Source: an uncultured Candidatus Saccharibacteria bacterium (lineage in GTDB: Bacteria > Patescibacteriota > Minisyncoccia > Phycocordibacterales > CAIRYW01). From it: a DNA stretch of 64,000 bases. Below are positions 32,299 through 63,946 of the stretch, piece by piece. Both the position numbers and the translations under genes were made by a program. The stretch spans positions 35,881-99,880 of the forward strand of contig CAYORS010000001.1 of NCBI GenBank assembly GCA_964406475.1, written 5' to 3'. The first letter of the stretch is position 1, and every line of letters starts with the position of its first letter. The notes beneath the pieces are model-generated. The model saw nothing but the letters and a program-made list of their open reading frames with translations. It was not told where the DNA came from and did no database searches.

Positions 32299-33009
32299 TT
32301 ATTTTGACTTCATTGACTTTTGAACATATATCTCCTGAAAGACAGTGAAGATGTTACGCACGGTCCAATAAAGGGGAAGTGCTCCTGGGAGATTTGTCGC
32401 AATAAGACCAACAACAAAAGGAAGTACGTACTTTATTTGCATCTGCATTGAGTGGGCGAATTCCTCTTGAATTGTTTTCTTTTTGTTCGGATCTATTTTT
32501 TGTATCTTCAGAGACATAATATGGGCTTGGATGTATTGAGTTACTCCAGCAAAAACTGCTAAAACAACACTCTTTTTACCAATATCTACAATACCCAAAA
32601 AAATCATATTGACAGTATCTGGATTTTTTACAAAAGAATACAAATACTCAGTATGAATAGTAGGTAATCCACGGAAGAAAACATAGTAGAGTGCAATCAA
32701 AATAGGAAACTGAATAAGCATAAGAAAAATAATGGAAAATGGGTTGATTTTGTATTTTTTATACAAATCCATTGTTTGTCGGGCTTGTTCTGTAGGATCT
32801 TTTGTCTTTTCTTTTATTGCCTTAAGCTCTGGCTCGATCTCTTTGAGAACTATTTGGGTTCTAATAGACTTTTTGGAAATAGAAAAAAGTATAATACTTA
32901 CAATAAGTGTAAGTAAAACAACTGCAATTCCTGCATCATGATTAGGAATAATATCAATAATATAAACAAGTCCATTGTAAAGCGGTTTGTAAAACAATGT
33001 ATTAAACAT
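32299..33009 (-). CDS. yidC: Membrane protein insertase YidC (short Gram-positive/CPR form)
   Basis: 236 aa. Conserved ...TEQARQTMDLYKKYKINPFS...LIQFPILIALYYV region. Confidence 0.8.
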   Translation of the reverse strand: MFNTLFYKPLYNGLVYIIDIIPNHDAGIAVVLLTLIVSIILFSISKKSIRTQIVLKEIEPELKAIKEKTKDPTEQARQTMDLYKKYKINPFSIIFLMLIQFPILIALYYVFFRGLPTIHTEYLYSFVKNPDTVNMIFLGIVDIGKKSVVLAVFAGVTQYIQAHIMSLKIQKIDPNKKKTIQEEFAHSMQMQIKYVLPFVVGLIATNLPGALPLYWTVRNIFTVFQEIYVQKSMKSK

Positions 33010-33052
33010 AGGTATTATTGTACACCAATACCCACTTTTCGTATACCAAGCT

Positions 33053-33373
33053 TTATATTTGTTCTAAAATATCCTTAATAGAGGGGATAAGGTCTTTAGT
33101 TTTTAGTTTTTCACACCCACTTTTTATATAAAAAACAGCAAAAATACCCTTTTTTTGATCAAAAGACCTTAAAGCTTCTTTAAAAATGCGCTTTACACGA
33201 TGTCTTGTGACACTTAATCGATAATCTCTCTTGCTTAAAATACAGGCATATTTAAAAGAGTTTGTGTCATTTTTAAGGTATTTAACATTGAAAAATAAGG
33301 AGTTTTTTGAACTCCTTATTTTTGAAATTTGACCAATCTCTTCTCGATTAAGTTGTTTTTTTCGAGAAAGCAT
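33053..33373 (-). CDS. rnpA: Ribonuclease P protein component
   Basis: RNR motif region VTRHRVKRIFKEALR. Located between rpmH and yidC. Confidence 0.75.
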   Translation of the reverse strand: MLSRKKQLNREEIGQISKIRSSKNSLFFNVKYLKNDTNSFKYACILSKRDYRLSVTRHRVKRIFKEALRSFDQKKGIFAVFYIKSGCEKLKTKDLIPSIKDILEQI

Positions 33374-33379
33374 AAGAAA

Positions 33380-33517
33380 CTAGACCGTAGTAACCTTTTT
33401 TCGTCCTTTTCTTATTCTACGGAGAATCACTCTTTTACCATAAGAAGTTTTACTCCTTGCAAGGAATCCATGAACCTTTGCTCGCTTTTTCTTTTTAGGT
33501 TGATATGTAACTGACAT
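33380..33517 (-). CDS. rpmH: 50S ribosomal protein L34
   Basis: [45 protein letters not shown]. Start verified codon by codon at 33515-33517. Confidence 0.85.
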
Positions 33518-33652
33518 ACTTTGTAATATATCATTGTGTGTGTTTTTTGACAAGAAGGGGACTATTTTTTGAGTTTTCCACATCTTATCAACACACTTAT
33601 TCAATGTTTTCTAGTTTTCCTGTTTTTGTGTGGTTGTATAATATACCTACTT
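33518..33652. promoter_or_regulatory. oriC-proximal rpmH-dnaA intergenic region with DnaA-box variants and the dnaA promoter
   Basis: TTTTCCACA at 33574-33582 and TTATCAACA at 33585-33593. TATAAT at 33637-33642, about 10 nt upstream of the dnaA ATG. Confidence 0.5.
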
Positions 33653-35008
33653 ATGGAAAACAAGGACATATTGTGGAGTAGAGTTCTTTCGGATATGGAA
33701 ATATCCCTCTCAAAAGCAAATTTTGTGATGTGGTTTAAGGATACTTTTATAGTCAAAATCGATGATGGAGTTGTGTATATTGGTGTTCCCAGCGCTTTTA
33801 TAAAAGAGTGGTTCGCAAATAAATACCATAAAATGATCTTTAAGTCTCTTCGAGACACATCGGAACATATAAAAGGAATTGAATACGTTATTGTAAAATC
33901 AGAAAACAGAAAAGATATTGAAGAGAATGAGCGAAAAAAGAAGGTTAATTCTTTTGTGGGAGAACAAGAACTTCCTCTTGCAGACCTCTATATAAACAAA
34001 GATGATAATCTAAACCCCCGTTATACCTTTGAAAGTTTTGTAATTGGACCTTTCAACGAACTTGCTCATGCAGCAGCCCAGGCAATCATTAAAAAACCAG
34101 CATCGTATAACCCCCTCTTTTTTTATGGAGATACAGGGAGAGGAAAGACTCACCTTATACAAGCAATTGGTAACGAACTTAAGAAAAATGATTCGTCAAA
34201 AAGGGTTTATTATATTACATCAGACAAGTTCTATCAGGAGTTTGCAAGCTCAATGCAAGACGGAAAACTCACATCTTTTAAGGATAAATACAAAAAATAC
34301 GATGTTTTTATTATGGATGATATACAGTTTTTGTCAAAAAAAGAAAAAACACAAGAAGAACTCTTCCATCTTTTTAACTACCTAAATGACAATAACAAAC
34401 AAATAATCTTTTCTTCAGACCAGCACCCTAACTACATAAATGATTTGGAAGATCGCCTTAAATCAAGATTTGTATCTGGAATGATTGTTGATATTCCGGC
34501 ACCAGACTATGAATCTCGTGCTGCTATTATTAAAAATAAAACAAAAACAAAAGGTGTTGATCTTAATCCTGTAATAATCGACTACCTAGCAGGGAATGTA
34601 GAGACAAACATCCGAGAACTTGAGGGGATTGTTAATAATATAACATGCCAAATGGAACTTCGAGGAAGAGATTTGGACCTTGCTGAAATAAAACACCTTA
34701 TCAAAGACAGCTCAAAACCAACAAAATCTGTTTCTGTGAAAGATGTTTTGCGAGCAATTTCACAGTTTTATGACATTGAAGAAGCAGCAATAACAGACAA
34801 AACACGAAAAAAAGAAGTGGTGAAACCTCGGCAAGTTGCAATGTTTATTTTAAGAGAAGACTATAACATATCATACCCATCAATCGGTCAAAAAATGGGA
34901 GGAAGAGATCATACAACAGTTATGCATTCGTGTGAAAAAATAAAAAACGACCTCAAAGACAACAACCAACTTTCCCAGGAATTAAGTCAGATACGAGCAA
35001 TGTTATAA
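33653..35008 (+). CDS. dnaA: Chromosomal replication initiator DnaA
   Basis: AAA+ Walker A GDTGRGKTHL and C-terminal DNA-binding helix-turn-helix. Start set at MENKD (33653). Confidence 0.9.
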   Translation: MENKDILWSRVLSDMEISLSKANFVMWFKDTFIVKIDDGVVYIGVPSAFIKEWFANKYHKMIFKSLRDTSEHIKGIEYVIVKSENRKDIEENERKKKVNSFVGEQELPLADLYINKDDNLNPRYTFESFVIGPFNELAHAAAQAIIKKPASYNPLFFYGDTGRGKTHLIQAIGNELKKNDSSKRVYYITSDKFYQEFASSMQDGKLTSFKDKYKKYDVFIMDDIQFLSKKEKTQEELFHLFNYLNDNNKQIIFSSDQHPNYINDLEDRLKSRFVSGMIVDIPAPDYESRAAIIKNKTKTKGVDLNPVIIDYLAGNVETNIRELEGIVNNITCQMELRGRDLDLAEIKHLIKDSSKPTKSVSVKDVLRAISQFYDIEEAAITDKTRKKEVVKPRQVAMFILREDYNISYPSIGQKMGGRDHTTVMHSCEKIKNDLKDNNQLSQELSQIRAML

Positions 35009-35209
35009 AACAGTGGAAATCTTGTGGAAAAGTAGATTTTAAAACCATGTTATACACACAAAAACAAAACTTAAAAAGTAATCAACAAAACATAATCAGC
35101 TTTTTCACAAAAGATATGTGGAATAAAATAACGAAAAAGATATTAAAAACAAGAGGATAAAAAAGTTTTCCACTTATACACAGAGATTAATTATAATTAA
35201 TATTTATTT
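35009..35209. promoter_or_regulatory. dnaA-dnaN intergenic AT-rich region with a DnaA-box cluster (likely oriC core)
   Basis: TGTGGAAAA 35015-35023 (box on the minus strand), TTTTTCACA 35101-35109, TGTGGAATA 35117-35125, TTTTCCACT 35166-35174. Confidence 0.55.
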
Positions 35210-36310
35210 ATGAAAATAGAAATAATAAAAGACAAACTCCTTGCAGCTATCACTCAAGCAGAACGTATTGCGGGAAAACACATATCACTACCTATTCTCT
35301 CTTGCGTCATAATTGAAGCAAGGGAGGGTGTTGTTAGTGTGAAGGCAACAAACCTCGATGTTGGTATAGAAATCTCTGTGGTGGCCAAAATTTTTGAAGA
35401 TGGAGTGGTTGCTCTCCAAGGTTCACTTCTTAAATCTTTTGTCTCGAGCTTAGGTAACAATAAATCCGTTTTGTTTGAAGTTAAGGAGGGTGCTTGTATT
35501 ATTTCTTCTGGATCAAGTGAGGCTTCTTTCAGAATTACTTCACCAGATGATTTTCCTGTGATACCAAGGGTTTCTGGTGACAATCCTCTTGTGATACCTT
35601 CAAAAGATTTTGTTCTAGGGCTTAGGTCTGTTGTGTGGAGTGCTGCTGTTTCATCAATCAAACCCGAGCTTTCAAGTGTTTATATTTATGAAGACGATTC
35701 GTTTCTTGTTTTTGTGGCAACAGACTCTTTCCGTCTTGCAGAGAAGAGGGTTAAAACAAAAAACATTAAAAATTTGGAACCCCTCCTTATTCCATTCAAA
35801 AACAGTCTTGAGATTGTAAGGGTTTTTGAAGATTTTGACGGTGATTTAAAAATTTTTGTTTCAAAAAACCAGCTTTCGATTTTAACAGAAAACATTCACT
35901 TGTCTTCTCGGGTGGTTGATGGTAATTTTCCTGATTACAGACAGATTATTCCAAAAGAATACGAGACAGAAGCAAATATTTTGAAGTCAGATTTTGTTTC
36001 AGCAATTAAAATTTCGGGTATTTTTGCAAATAACTTCAACCAACTCCTTCTTTCTTTTGATACTGCTAATAAAAAAATCGATCTTCTTGCAAAAAATAAT
36101 GATATTGGAGAGGGTAAACAATCCCTCAAGGCTGTTTTAAAAGGTAAAGACGTTTCTATGTCTTTCAATCACAAGTTTATCCTTGATTGTCTCCATATTA
36201 TTGAAGATGAGAATATTGTTTTAAAAATGGCTGGTGTTGGAAAGCCTATGATTATAGCCCCTGCTCATAACCCATCGTTTGTTTACTTGGTAATGTCGAT
36301 GAACAAATAA
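35210..36310 (+). CDS. dnaN: DNA polymerase III beta sliding clamp
   Basis: 366 aa with three-domain clamp pattern. Position after dnaA. Confidence 0.9.
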   Translation: MKIEIIKDKLLAAITQAERIAGKHISLPILSCVIIEAREGVVSVKATNLDVGIEISVVAKIFEDGVVALQGSLLKSFVSSLGNNKSVLFEVKEGACIISSGSSEASFRITSPDDFPVIPRVSGDNPLVIPSKDFVLGLRSVVWSAAVSSIKPELSSVYIYEDDSFLVFVATDSFRLAEKRVKTKNIKNLEPLLIPFKNSLEIVRVFEDFDGDLKIFVSKNQLSILTENIHLSSRVVDGNFPDYRQIIPKEYETEANILKSDFVSAIKISGIFANNFNQLLLSFDTANKKIDLLAKNNDIGEGKQSLKAVLKGKDVSMSFNHKFILDCLHIIEDENIVLKMAGVGKPMIIAPAHNPSFVYLVMSMNK

Positions 36311-61256: not shown

Positions 61257-61461
61257 AAAAACTCTTTATCAATCAAATACTGTTTAGTTTATTTGAGAGC
61301 AGATTTTGACTCAACTTCCCGATATAATTCAAATGCATCAACACTACTTCATAATTGACTTATACGCGGTTTTACCATCGAACAGTACTTTTATATAAGA
61401 ATTATCCGGAATAGCATATTTACTATCTTTTGTTGAATAATATTTTTCTGTAGTGTGATAA

Positions 61462-62145
61462 AAATTGTACCCTTCACTGTCTTTGGTAACTTTCTCAATT
61501 ACAAATGAAAAGTTTCTTCTAATGATCCTTGGTTCACAAGCAAAGCTTGAAAATGATAACAGAGGAATTAATGTGAAGAGGGGGCTTCGAACTCGAGTTG
61601 AAACGGGATTGTAGCCTGGAGTCGCACCTGTTGGATACTTGAATGAAAAGCATATGGATAGGAAATGTCAGGTGAGATTAGATCTGGATAGGGCACCAAT
61701 AGTTAAAAAGATTTTTGAGAAGATGGGGTACGAGAAGTGGTCAGGTAGGAAAATATATCACTGGCTTAAATTCGAACTTAATTTCAAGACGGTGGGGAAT
61801 CACAATCTTGCACTGGGCAATATATACAGAATGCTCCAGTGTGCTTTCTACACAGGAACATTTGAATATCCAAAGGGAAGTGGAAATTTTTATCTAGGTA
61901 AACATGAACCAATTGTTGATAAAGAACTGTTTGCAAAAGTTCAGGAACAATTAAAGAGAGATAATATACAAAGAGAAAACAAAGAATTCGCATTCACTAA
62001 ATTATTTACATGTGGATACTGTGGAAGTGGAATATCGGCAGAAGAAAAATGGAAACAATTAAAAGATGGTACTCACACAAAATATATTTATTGTGGTTGT
62101 TCAAGCAACTGTAAGGGCCGCTCCTGCTGGTTTACGGACTATTAG
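61462..62145 (+). pseudogene. Remnant of a large serine recombinase (Recombinase domain plus zinc-ribbon only)
   Basis: The catalytic resolvase domain is absent. Translation ...PVGYLNEKHMDRK...APIVKKIFEKM...LALGNIYRMLQCAFYTGTFEYP...HEPIVDKELFAKVQEQLKR...FTCGYCGSGIS...YIYCGCSS matches the Recombinase plus Zn_ribbon_recom regions of phage-type serine integrases. The frame is interrupted by an in-frame TAG at 61612-61614. The ORF-track start at 61639 is a TTG. Confidence 0.6.
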
Positions 62146-62170: not shown

Positions 62171-62989
62171 ATGACTAAATATATTATTCTCAGTTCTATT
62201 ATTTTACTCGGGACTTTGTGGTTTGTGTTAAATATGCTTGGAAGGCGCAATGTCATAGATTTGCAAAACGAGCCTAGAGATATTGATGTACAGGCATCAA
62301 GCAAGCTTGATGGTGGCGAGGTGACACTTGGTGCACAATTTGTAATTCCCGAAGATAAATATATAACGGTAACATCTGCTGATGGGGGCCCGCTTTTTAA
62401 GATTCAGAAAACACAAAACCAAGTGCTGCTCGGATACATCAAACATCTCTACGATTTTCGTGATGCTGAAGAAAAGAGAAGTGGCAAAACATCGTTCAGG
62501 AGTACTTATGCTGGATACGATGTTGCTTCACTTATAGATCCTAAGTCAGATACCCCCTCTCCGCTCAAAGACTTTTTTATGAAAAATACTGTGGTGTTAC
62601 AATCCTCAGGGACTGGCGATCTTCCTATTGTGACGGTATTTTATATTGATGGTAATGCGTATGCTCTCTATTCTTCTCCAGAAGGGCCAAATGGAGAGAA
62701 TATTCAGTCTGGCAAATTCATTATTGTTAATTATACGAAAGAGATGTCGGAGAGGATTGGGGCCTCTGTTTCTGGTGTACAGAGTGCGGTGGTGGACTGG
62801 ACTGCAAGTGGCTATGAGCTTACATCTAGTGTGAATCCTCCAATCTACTATATTCAAAGAATATATCGCTCAACAAGCGAAAACAAGATCAAAGTATCAG
62901 TCAAAACATATTTAAAAAGCAAGAGTCAATATGAGCTCCAGATAGACCCTCAGACATTAAAAGTTGTTGATGTTGTGGAGCTTGAGTAG
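62171..62989 (+). CDS. N-terminally anchored or secreted hypothetical protein
   Basis: N-terminal hydrophobic segment MTKYIILSSIILLGTLWFVL. Confidence 0.5.
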   Translation: MTKYIILSSIILLGTLWFVLNMLGRRNVIDLQNEPRDIDVQASSKLDGGEVTLGAQFVIPEDKYITVTSADGGPLFKIQKTQNQVLLGYIKHLYDFRDAEEKRSGKTSFRSTYAGYDVASLIDPKSDTPSPLKDFFMKNTVVLQSSGTGDLPIVTVFYIDGNAYALYSSPEGPNGENIQSGKFIIVNYTKEMSERIGASVSGVQSAVVDWTASGYELTSSVNPPIYYIQRIYRSTSENKIKVSVKTYLKSKSQYELQIDPQTLKVVDVVELE

Positions 62990-63200
62990 GGAGTGGCGAG
63001 AGTTTCGACCTCGAAATTCTATATGCTGTTGCATATAGAATTTCTCTTCACTGGTTTTCGCTTCGCTTGTTACTACAAGCTCAATGCGAAAACCGTTCGA
63101 ATCTCACCCGTGTTTGCTTCGCAAACATTTCCTCTCGCAAAGTAAAAGTCCGCCCTATTAAGGCGGACTAAACTTTGCGGAGGCTCTCGAGTTCGGACTT
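62989..63200. repeat. Orphan copy (locus D) of the T-loop-plus-hairpin repeat module, not adjacent to a tRNA
   Basis: gaaaaccGTTCGAATCTCACCCgtg, then hairpin tgtttgc-ttc-gcaaaca, then nested hairpins cctctcgcaaagt...agtccgcc-ctattaa-ggcggact...actttgcggagg. Preceded by a 13-bp IR aaattctatatgc/gcatatagaattt. Confidence 0.4.
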
Positions 63201-63325
63201 TTTAGTTCATTGCATCACAAGGCTTTTCTAATGTTTTTTATAATATCACGACGAGGTATCTCGAGCATACAACTTTTCTTAAAAAAGTGACAAAAGTGAC
63301 AGTAGTTCGGTTTTAATTCCTTGAA

Positions 63326-63946
63326 TTAAATAAGTGTAATAAATTGAAGTATAAATCCGAGTACGAGTAAAATTGCTCCTATAACTCCCCACTTTCTTTG
63401 AGCAAGGCGATCCTGTACTTGAGGAAGTTTAAGTTTTTCTTCCTCAGTATCTCCGGACCATCTTGAAACTCCTAACCTTATCGCTTCAGCTTTAGAAATA
63501 AATAAACCCTTTGCAAATGCAATGCTCCCTAAAAAACTTAATACGATACCTGAAATATTTAGATAACGATCAATACCAACCAGAGAATAGGTGGACACAG
63601 TAAACATTTCAAATAAAGAAATCCAAGGAATTGTAGAAAACATTAGTGCAAGATATATAAGAATAAATATCTTTGGTACGTGAAGTTCAATATGACTAAA
63701 AGGCCAATAGACCTTTTTATCTTTACCTCTACCCAACATTTCCCATTCAGTATCGTACAGAGCCAATGGTAATCTCATCTCAATCGCATGTATCACTTTA
63801 AACTTTGCACTATTTAACCCTTTATATGAAGCAATAATTCTATACCATAGATAACAAATTGTTATTCCTGCTATCGCAGATAGACCTAGTATAAAACTGA
63901 TCTCCTGAGCATTAGCTCTAGTTGCAATAAAGCCGAGAAGTGTCAC
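63326..63946 (-). CDS. Polytopic membrane protein, hypothetical (possibly N-terminally truncated by the window end)
   Basis: 5-6 hydrophobic helices. No firm family call. Confidence 0.45.
   Translation of the reverse strand: MTLLGFIATRANAQEISFILGLSAIAGITICYLWYRIIASYKGLNSAKFKVIHAIEMRLPLALYDTEWEMLGRGKDKKVYWPFSHIELHVPKIFILIYLALMFSTIPWISLFEMFTVSTYSLVGIDRYLNISGIVLSFLGSIAFAKGLFISKAEAIRLGVSRWSGDTEEEKLKLPQVQDRLAQRKWGVIGAILLVLGFILQFITLI

Follow-up and report, generated by a model that had tools for sequence, protein, structure and literature searches.

We analyzed a 64,000-nucleotide stretch of DNA (hereafter the window) from an uncultured Candidatus Saccharibacteria bacterium (assembly GCA_964406475.1, contig CAYORS010000001.1, positions 35,881 to 99,880) and found that a hairpin-rich unit close to its end, locus D (~62995-63198), is very probably a decayed member of a family of palindromic repeats linked to tRNA genes. 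Intact members lie tail-to-tail with a tRNA gene and contain copies of its T-loop-to-3'-end segment. With modest confidence, we further read locus D as a decayed copy, without a tRNA, of a DNA repeat specific to Patescibacteria, and the family as a non-autonomous element inserted at tRNA 3' ends. A first-pass annotation, made from the nucleotide sequence without database searches, had described 62989-63200 as an orphan copy of a T-loop plus hairpin module that also occurs at three tRNA-linked loci (A, B, and C) of the window. All strings and hairpins quoted there lie where it had placed them, with the qualification that the nested outer arms are imperfect. The module is real, but it makes up only the 3' third of a larger unit, and two further hairpins (63013-63044 and 63053-63094) and a degenerate tRNA 3' end had been missed.

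Locus D and its relatives

Using the element that adjoins tRNA-Lys in a Saccharibacteria metagenome-assembled genome (MAG; L058) as the query, nhmmer detected locus D at 63000-63147 (E=1.1e-14) and then loci B, A, and C, with which locus D aligns; the proposed homology to the tRNA-linked loci was therefore borne out. By blastn, locus D and the L058 element are 88-90% identical in two blocks, with a compensatory T/A change in a 14-bp hairpin. An intact copy of the D subfamily was identified on a metagenome contig (L162), where it is arranged tail-to-tail with tRNA-Ile(gat) and matches this tRNA perfectly in T-loop, T-stem, and acceptor. The hairpins between the tRNA-like pieces of locus D have their homologs in the core of the L058 and L162 elements.

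The similarity to a T-loop is hardly accidental. The nonamer GTTCGAWTC is present at six sites in the window against 0.97 expected, a number reached in none of 100 shuffles; three sites belong to genuine tRNA T-loops, and the remaining ones (434, 48674, and 63095) lie inside copies of one repeat. It could be argued that GTTCGAATC is simply the tRNA T-loop consensus and that ordinary terminator hairpins are expected in a region between convergent genes, so that locus D would be a chance resemblance. The excess of the nonamer, its confinement outside tRNAs to family copies, the structural homology to loci A-C, and the match to L058 all speak against this. A tRNA or transfer-messenger RNA (tmRNA) pseudogene, for which a search had been recommended, was ruled out: ARAGORN, which called four tRNAs in the whole window, found neither kind of gene at 62.9-63.3 kb, Rfam gave no tRNA or tmRNA match with E<=10 in 62500-63500, and no cloverleaf can be recognized. 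Only the T-loop, the T-stem 3' strand, and the acceptor strands of a tRNA are represented, with no D or anticodon arm between them. Chance or a pseudogene is thus a highly improbable explanation, and the description of locus D as an orphan copy lacking a tRNA stands. It resembles in this respect the orphans L030, L025, and L031, and no tRNA was found within 8 kb of it in a longer contig of the same genome, which differs from the window by one mismatch over a 9.8 kb overlap.

Homology, the left edge, and folding delimit the locus-D unit at ~62995-63198. All its parts are given here on the + strand; this strand corresponds to the element sense, and in intact copies the tRNA lies on the other one. 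The unit begins with the 5' arm GCGAGAG (62996-63002), a copy of the acceptor-stem 5' strand recognized as an inverted repeat in the position of the 5' arm of intact copies; it is perfectly complementary to CTCTCGC (63132-63138) within the acceptor copy. An assignment of its GCGAG to a conserved 16-mer of the family was dropped, as GCGAGAG is the acceptor 5' arm that pairs with 63132-63138. An antisense T-loop remnant, TTTCGACC (63003-63010), follows, which pairs in RNAfold with the T-loop copy at 63096-63105. The D subfamily lacks a 14-nt mini-hairpin at this point (as seen in L162), and the same arrangement is found in unit A2 of the window, L051, and L162. The first core hairpin (63013-63044) has a perfect 14-bp stem, GAAATTCTATATGC/GCATATAGAATTTC, kept with compensatory change in L058 and L162. 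The second, hp2 (63053-63094), reads GGTTTTCGC...GCGAAAACC around an inner hairpin at 63066-63079, is 90% identical to its counterpart in L058, and shares an exact 23-mer with L162.

The remaining parts are arranged in the order of the family: a copy of the T-loop and T-stem 3' strand, the small hairpin hp1, a copy of the acceptor 3' strand, and a palindromic terminator. The first of these, GTTCGAATCTCACCC (63095-63109), corresponds to a segment that in intact copies matches the neighboring tRNA, T-loop variants included. The tRNA-derived arm is then split by hp1 (63110-63128; arms TGTTTGC at 63111-63117 and GCAAACA at 63121-63127), and a hairpin is found at the same position in nearly all family members. 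By sequence reading, TTCCTCTCGCA (63129-63139) is the copy of the acceptor-stem 3' strand and discriminator. The palindromic module at 63139-63176 (unstranded), recognized by its inverted repeats and a terminator scan, occupies the slot of the shared bidirectional terminator in intact copies. Its core hairpin (63147-63169) is AGTCCGCC-CTATTAA-GGCGGACT, nested within the outer pieces CGCAAAGT/ACTTTGCG at 63136-63143 and 63172-63179, and the outer arms CCTCTCGC and GCGGAGG are imperfect, with one indel. According to the terminator scan, the central hairpin is an intrinsic terminator on the - strand, where AGTCCGCCTTAATAGGGCGGACT is followed by the T-rich TTTACTTTGC; it is weak on the + strand, whose tail is T-poor. 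Beyond it, a degenerate antisense tRNA 3' end of 22 nt from acceptor to T-loop, GCGGAGGCTCTCGAGTTCGGAC (63177-63198), closes the unit, with no tRNA body behind it. This fragment differs from the unit's own inverted copy at roughly one third of positions, which indicates that the tRNA-derived arms of locus D have drifted. Folding energies of 62975-63205 are -102 kcal/mol (+ strand) and -97.6 kcal/mol (- strand), compared with about -58 and -54 for shuffled sequences (z of -9.8 and -9.7, respectively), so that the folding check proposed earlier gave a clear positive result on both strands.

The longer contig shows locus D within a copper-resistance cluster, in an island that has decayed. In order, this island contains a truncated serine recombinase, a gene for a 272-aa protein, locus D, an 8xMP membrane protein, a ThsB-TIR gene, small open reading frames (ORFs), a gene for an S24 peptidase, and another serine recombinase, this one truncated at the 5' end; the two recombinase remnants lie 850 bp upstream and 3 kb downstream of locus D. 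Locus D is missing behind the homologs of the 272-aa gene that two other organisms carry (L163 and L164; identities of 67% and 54%). Their sequences are shared with the window only up to GAGTAGGG, which places the left edge of locus D at ~62995. The comparison with relatives proposed in the first-pass annotation thus yielded both homologous elements and sites without the element. A relative with a tRNA at the position of locus D was not found among the loci recovered, namely the identical contigs L123 and L124 and the two homologous loci without D.

Several observations concern these neighbors. The large serine recombinase at ~61400-62145 (+; see also L123 11860-12990 and L120 5506-6825) is a pseudogene, truncated at both ends and with an in-frame TAG where a relative has TGG, and the second copy, 3 kb past the window end, lacks the first ~55 codons. 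Among 310 homologs, nearly all of the 120 listed are C-terminal-only ORFs, mostly of ~250-290 aa, with recombinase and zinc-ribbon domains but no catalytic domain, which suggests that in Patescibacteria this gene family has decayed widely or been split systematically. Past the window end, the segment L123 9156-11754 encodes the 8xMP membrane protein, the ThsB-like TIR protein (Thoeris-type defence), small ORFs, and the S24 (LexA/CI-like) peptidase. It is bracketed by the two recombinase remnants inside the cluster with a CsoR-like repressor, a multicopper oxidase, and a P-type ATPase, and looks like a decayed defence island. The 272-aa ORF upstream of locus D is not a conserved housekeeping gene. 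Similarly, a Fic-domain gene (HPFxxGNGR motif; 53486-54634, - strand), which is not a housekeeping gene either, lies directly upstream of the family copy at locus C and reads towards the tRNA.

The repeat family at tRNA genes

Profile searches revealed at least six further copies in the window besides locus D, and all three tRNA transcription units carry the repeat. At locus A, copy A2 (485-619, +; nhmmer E=3.9e-11) is tail-to-tail with tRNA-Gly (663-734, -) and forms a tandem with A1 (349-448, +), a partial unit with a type-2 core recognized by nhmmer and from the sequence. At locus B, copy B2 (48565-48722, +; nhmmer E=1.5e-38) faces the tRNA at 48757-48832 (-), and two partial tandem units found by nhmmer, B0 and B1 (48323-48410 and 48419-48472, together 48323-48472, +), precede it. 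At locus C, the copy at 53251-53390 (-; nhmmer E=7.2e-18) is tail-to-tail with tRNA-Arg(gcg) (53139-53213, +). Downstream of all three tRNAs there follow a bidirectional terminator, an inverted copy of the acceptor 3' strand, hp1, and an inverted copy of the T-loop and T-stem 3' strand, and beyond the latter there are ~100 nt of further hairpins. The conserved 16-mer GCGAGTACGCTTATCG is present at loci B and C, and the proximal unit of locus A lacks it.

Two side observations were made at locus B. ARAGORN called the tRNA at 48757-48832 (-) as a suppressor (anticodon tta), and its anticodon arm, CTCCCTTTTAAGGAG, is identical to that of tRNA-Lys(ttt) in L060; most likely it is tRNA-Lys(UUU), miscalled by one register owing to a mismatch at the stem base. 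A second small palindromic repeat, GTCACNCATAAATTTCTNCTGAAATTTTG, is found at 48527-48555 of the window and at L162 315-343, and apparent longer relatives of it are nested inside the elements of L007, L024, L059, L063, and L089. Possibly these belong to a further family of miniature repeats that land inside tRNA-linked units or next to them.

Outside the window, the 16-mer matched more than 119 genome contigs. About 70 sites have element context, and all of these belong to Patescibacteria (Paceibacteria, Nomurabacteria, and Saccharibacteria). At 61 of them a convergent tRNA lies 100-600 nt downstream, mostly at 130-260 nt, and at least 12 tRNA types are represented, including Arg, Glu, Lys, Gln, Pro, Gly, Trp, Leu, Cys, Tyr, and His. 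Among the copies found with the 16-mer (L001-L119), the types are skewed (Arg 18, Glu 17, Lys 9, and Gln 5), which may reflect only the sampled subfamily or common T-arm sequences.

Read in the element sense, a canonical unit of ~150-250 bp begins with a copy of the acceptor 5' and T-stem 5' strands, which is the reverse complement of the tRNA 3' end and therefore forms a direct repeat with it. The core consists of an optional 14-nt mini-hairpin (GCG-AGTA-CGC), hp3 (5 bp, loop TTACA), the sequence AGTAC, and the long, variable hp2. The 3' part comprises the T-loop and T-stem 3' copy, AC, hp1, T, and the acceptor 3' strand with discriminator, where CCA is found only if the tRNA gene encodes it. 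The unit ends with the bidirectional terminator, after which the real tRNA follows in antisense. In this way, the T-loop-to-3'-end segment of the tRNA is present three times, as a direct, an inverted, and again a direct copy, and the identity of the distal repeat to the tRNA stops inside the T-loop. In subfamilies without the mini-hairpin (A2, L051, and L162), the repeat runs through AATCGA straight into hp3, and some subfamilies have other hairpins in place of hp3, namely type 2 and the type common to locus D, L058, and L162.

The tRNA-derived arms follow the neighboring gene. Acceptor 8-mers of the inverted arm (3' strand plus discriminator) match the adjacent tRNA at all eight positions in 26 of 44 copies and at seven or more in 31, and in the T-loop copy, too, tRNA-specific variants (TTCGAAC and TTCGAAT, for example) are reproduced. 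For the distal direct repeat, no more than 15 of 44 copies have a perfect 8-mer, and most of the others are at background level. One core subfamily, its variable hairpins nearly identical, was found at tRNAs for Arg, Gln, and Lys, and a single MAG contained two such copies; tRNA-Lys, in turn, was found with three different subfamilies, depending on the genome. Genes neighboring the elements are syntenic housekeeping genes. Tandem arrays occur at L003, L042, L118, and loci A and B of the window. Internal units of such arrays often keep only the T-stem strands, and those of L118 lack acceptor arms, hp1, and terminator. At L012 and L090, the duplication takes in the terminator. Besides the three orphans mentioned above, L006 and L092 also lack a tRNA. 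Empty sites were observed at tRNAs of carrier types (Arg-gcg in L081; Val-gac in L035, L040, and L050). A strict scan for inverted copies downstream of all tRNAs misses some of these copies and was used only qualitatively.

Covariation was assessed with 25 type-1 copies and 21 predicted pairs. In total, 97.3% of the predicted structure cells are paired, and 111 cells are changed on both sides compared with 31.8 in shuffles (none of 500 as high). Compensatory changes affect 14 of the 21 pairs, and sliding the partner by one column reduces pairing to below 50%. The hp3 stem is Watson-Crick in 173 of 180 cells over 36 distinct variants, around a near-invariant TTACA loop. Helices 1 and 3 show no one-sided (G.U-type) changes at all, nearly all changes being double. 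Apart from one doubtful column pair, G.U and A.C each account for ~1% of cells, whereas 100 tRNAs of these loci have, in 1032 cells of their acceptor and T stems, 51 G.U versus 7 A.C. The hairpins, lacking the G.U excess of tRNA stems, thus bear no signature of selection on one transcribed strand, and from these alignments they look like palindromes maintained at the DNA level. An early G.U count that favored one strand (16 versus 5) was set aside, as it came mostly from the doubtful column pair.

No Rfam family matched five canonical copies at E<=1, nor was a known RNA family matched at locus D, and a known RNA was accordingly ruled out. Neither Rfam nor the open-access literature text yielded a description of this repeat family. 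In kind it would be a tRNA-targeting insertion element or palindromic repeat, and it is in this form that we found no earlier account of it. The nearest paper deals with group I introns inside Patescibacteria tRNA genes, located in the anticodon loop (PMC13011429). Such an intron was ruled out here, as there is no match to an intron model and the unit lies outside the tRNA rather than in its anticodon loop.

Proposed mechanism and rival explanations

Helices almost confined to Watson-Crick pairs, tandems, orphans, empty tRNAs of the same type, and the presence of one subfamily at different tRNAs favor a DNA-level insertion element over an RNA gene. We infer the following course of events from the arrangement of the copies. 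A non-autonomous element would enter a tRNA gene by recombination within the T-loop-to-3'-end segment and bring a replacement 3' end together with a terminator, so that the tRNA would stay intact and the old 3' end would be displaced to the far side of the element. Owing to the inverted copy, the element could fold into a hairpin with a stem that mimics the target duplex. This hairpin would serve as a folded attachment site in which hp1 is an extrahelical feature, and the recombinase, encoded elsewhere, would act in trans. At locus D, a later event at the T-loop may have separated the tRNA body from the element, after which all tRNA-derived arms would have drifted. The first-pass annotation had suggested a former tRNA-like attachment site or a mobilized copy. 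The degenerate tRNA 3' fragment, the absence of D from L163 and L164, and the direct repeats, tandems, and empty sites of the family are in keeping with this idea, which is inferential and for which no recombinase or free form was found.

The family can be compared with three groups of known systems and with tRNA-like RNAs. When genomic islands target tRNA genes, the insert brings a replacement 3' end and displaces the old one. Like islands of the tyrosine-integrase type with the T-loop sublocation, the family has an insert flanked by a direct repeat from the T-loop to the 3' end (degenerate in both copies at locus D), the gene is kept intact by the copy adjoining the tRNA body while the displaced copy decays, tandems form at one tRNA, and many tRNAs are used. 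It differs in that the insert measures only ~150-250 bp with no integrase found and no free form known, in that there is a third, inverted, hairpin-split tRNA copy along with a conserved two-hairpin core, and in that the element always supplies a bidirectional terminator. Folded single-stranded attachment (att) sites, such as CTX-phi attP(+), those of other Xer-exploiting elements, and integron attC, likewise have two inverted target-like arms that can fold across a short spacer into a target-like duplex, conserved structure with variable stem sequences, extrahelical features, and strictly Watson-Crick stems. In the repeat family, the inverted copy shows complementarity both to the tRNA 3' segment, with the terminator between them, and to the distal repeat, with the core between. 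The target would, however, be a tRNA gene instead of dif or attI, and a recombinase for the family was not found; the resemblance to CTX-phi attP and attC may illustrate how the element could work, by analogy and with no claim of membership.

Repetitive extragenic palindromes (REP/REPIN) and miniature inverted-repeat transposable elements (MITEs), including palindromic elements derived from IS200/IS605, are also short, non-coding, hairpin-rich, and intergenic, are found at gene 3' ends and often between convergent genes, and occur in many copies per genome, tandem or nested, with terminator-like side effects. Their ends are identical in every copy, whereas the arms of the present family vary with the adjacent tRNA, and neither RAYT nor TnpA was found near the 67 element loci or in the checked parts of the 64-kb window. 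Lastly, tRNA-like RNAs (the tRNA-like domain of tmRNA, bacterial YrlA Y RNAs, and viral tRNA-like structures) share acceptor- and T-like helices from non-tRNA transcripts as well as the T-loop sequence. Unlike them, the family has no Rfam match, an unconserved acceptor helix, and helices without a G.U signature, and it copies whichever tRNA adjoins instead of one identity.

Several points weigh against the insertion-element reading. Within 4 kb of the 67 element loci, no recombinase, integrase, or transposase family recurs. No free or circular form was seen, and IMG/VR contains no 16-mer in element context. The reading does not by itself account for an inverted arm that is rewritten for each tRNA next to a core that is near-identical between copies of one genome; element-borne arms with hairpin-templated correction may be involved, or a core cassette exchanged at the TCGA palindrome within the T-loop, or some new mechanism that uses a template. 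Integration into a non-cognate tRNA would create a chimeric tRNA. The conserved loops (TTACA, AGTA, and AGCAG) and the terminator at the end would also suit an RNA gene, and column pair 53/87 of alignment A2 contains 10 G.U on the element-sense strand, which may point to a strand bias. The insertion boundaries are provisional, having been read from the comparison of copies rather than from a closely matched pair of occupied and empty strains. Moreover, sampling was seeded with one 16-mer and covers only some subfamilies, mostly from MAG sequences.

Among the other explanations, a gene for a structured non-coding RNA ranks first but is unlikely. The unit would be a tRNA minihelix mimic or a 3'-untranslated-region element, transcribed convergently with the tRNA or co-directionally behind it and copying the tRNA for tRNA-processing or -binding proteins, and locus D would be a pseudogene. 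Strong compensatory covariation with conserved loops, the very low folding energy, an intrinsic terminator always placed at the end of the unit and working in its direction, and the ten G.U of the one column pair agree with such a gene. So does the order in tRNA sense (acceptor 5', one arm, T-stem, expanded loop, T-stem 3', acceptor 3'), which reads as tRNA topology. It is harder to reconcile with the lack of an Rfam match, with helices that, this column pair excepted, do not show the G.U excess of tRNA stems from the same loci, and with acceptor-like pairing that is not maintained, since the distal arm has mostly fallen to background. The reduced internal units of L118, the patchy presence among copies of one tRNA type, and a promoter scan that found no convincing promoter point in the same direction. 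Passive growth, in which intrastrand template switching (quasi-palindrome correction) and local gene conversion build up palindromes at bidirectional tRNA terminators, with no dedicated mobility and no function other than termination, is improbable. Templated correction does predict near-pure Watson-Crick stems and two-sided changes without G.U intermediates, the inverted arm does track the selected tRNA arm while the distal direct repeat decays, and the terminator is included in the duplications at L012 and L090. Such growth does not, however, account for a core whose conserved loops and 14-nt mini-hairpin are common to Saccharibacteria, Paceibacteria, and different tRNAs, nor for orphans (D and L030) that carry the whole unit away from any tRNA; in addition, hp1 interrupts one arm only, and simple snap-back copying would erase it.

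The unit might also be an attachment site, or a site-proximal module, of islands mobilized by large serine recombinases, with locus D as an island junction; this we consider more improbable still. The remnants on both sides of locus D agree with it, as do a direct fusion at L013 and a recombinase fragment at L113. At L013 (1-120), the first ~35 nt of the element, comprising the distal arm and the 16-mer, are joined directly and in frame to the part of a serine recombinase that encodes its recombinase domain. No other physical element-recombinase fusion was seen, and this one may be a rearrangement junction or a real link. Nevertheless, a recombinase fragment is within reach at only 3 of 67 element loci, so the link to the remnant drawn in the first-pass annotation, which is indeed nearby, is a weak one. 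The fragments are decaying pseudogenes, truncated at different points and bearing different nonsense codons, and no intact gene was seen; those near locus D lie outside the unit. There are no half-elements at island edges either. Serine integrases exchange strands at a 2-bp core and do not generate direct repeats of 15-40 bp, and the repeat lengths of the family are unlike their products.

Four narrower ideas were rejected. A phage attP was ruled out, since the 37 matches of the 16-mer in IMG/VR are without element context and nearly all lie in one unrelated conserved phage gene. An SSV1-like arrangement, in which the motif would be the 5' part of a serine-recombinase gene split by integration, was dismissed because the remnants break at different points with different nonsense codons and because the motif is a 14-nt insertion that several subfamilies lack. 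A complementary DNA of a mature tRNA, following primer-binding-site logic, does not fit, as the copies follow the gene and have no CCA where the gene has none (L084). Finally, a bridge or seek RNA, or a guide RNA resembling an external guide sequence, was rejected because the two arms represent one target segment on its two strands and no RNA signature is seen in the helices.

A more far-reaching version of the insertion-element reading is rather unlikely: the family may be a new kind of mobile DNA whose target specificity resides in two short, replaceable arms flanking hp1, with a folded site that copies the T-loop-to-acceptor duplex of the tRNA and arms rewritten for each tRNA by a templated mechanism, so that it would be 'programmable' without a guide RNA.

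Other window features and implications

Two features of the window lie apart from the repeat. The genes yidC (-), dnaA (33569-35008), and dnaN (35210-36310), in the region 32299-36310, flank the stretch of lowest GC in the window (0.315), and the window probably spans the replication origin at ~33.0-33.5 kb. A gene for a XerC/D-type tyrosine recombinase is located at 4451-5365; it is probably the chromosomal Xer and is uninformative for the repeat family.

On its own, locus D is a relic of little importance, whose central hairpin probably still works, at most, as a terminator for the convergent downstream gene on the - strand. It leads, however, to a repeat that adjoins a large share of the tRNA genes of Patescibacteria, bacteria with reduced genomes in which useless DNA is not expected to be kept. 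Under either an element or an RNA interpretation, its tRNA-like fragments, strong hairpins, and tandem repeats can break Patescibacteria assemblies and confuse annotation. If the units are RNA genes, they would constitute a family of tRNA-end mimics individually matched to the neighboring tRNAs. If the family is a mobile element, it would target tRNA genes while carrying a 3' end in reserve along with an inverted copy of the target that a hairpin splits, and the recombinase that serves it would be worth finding.

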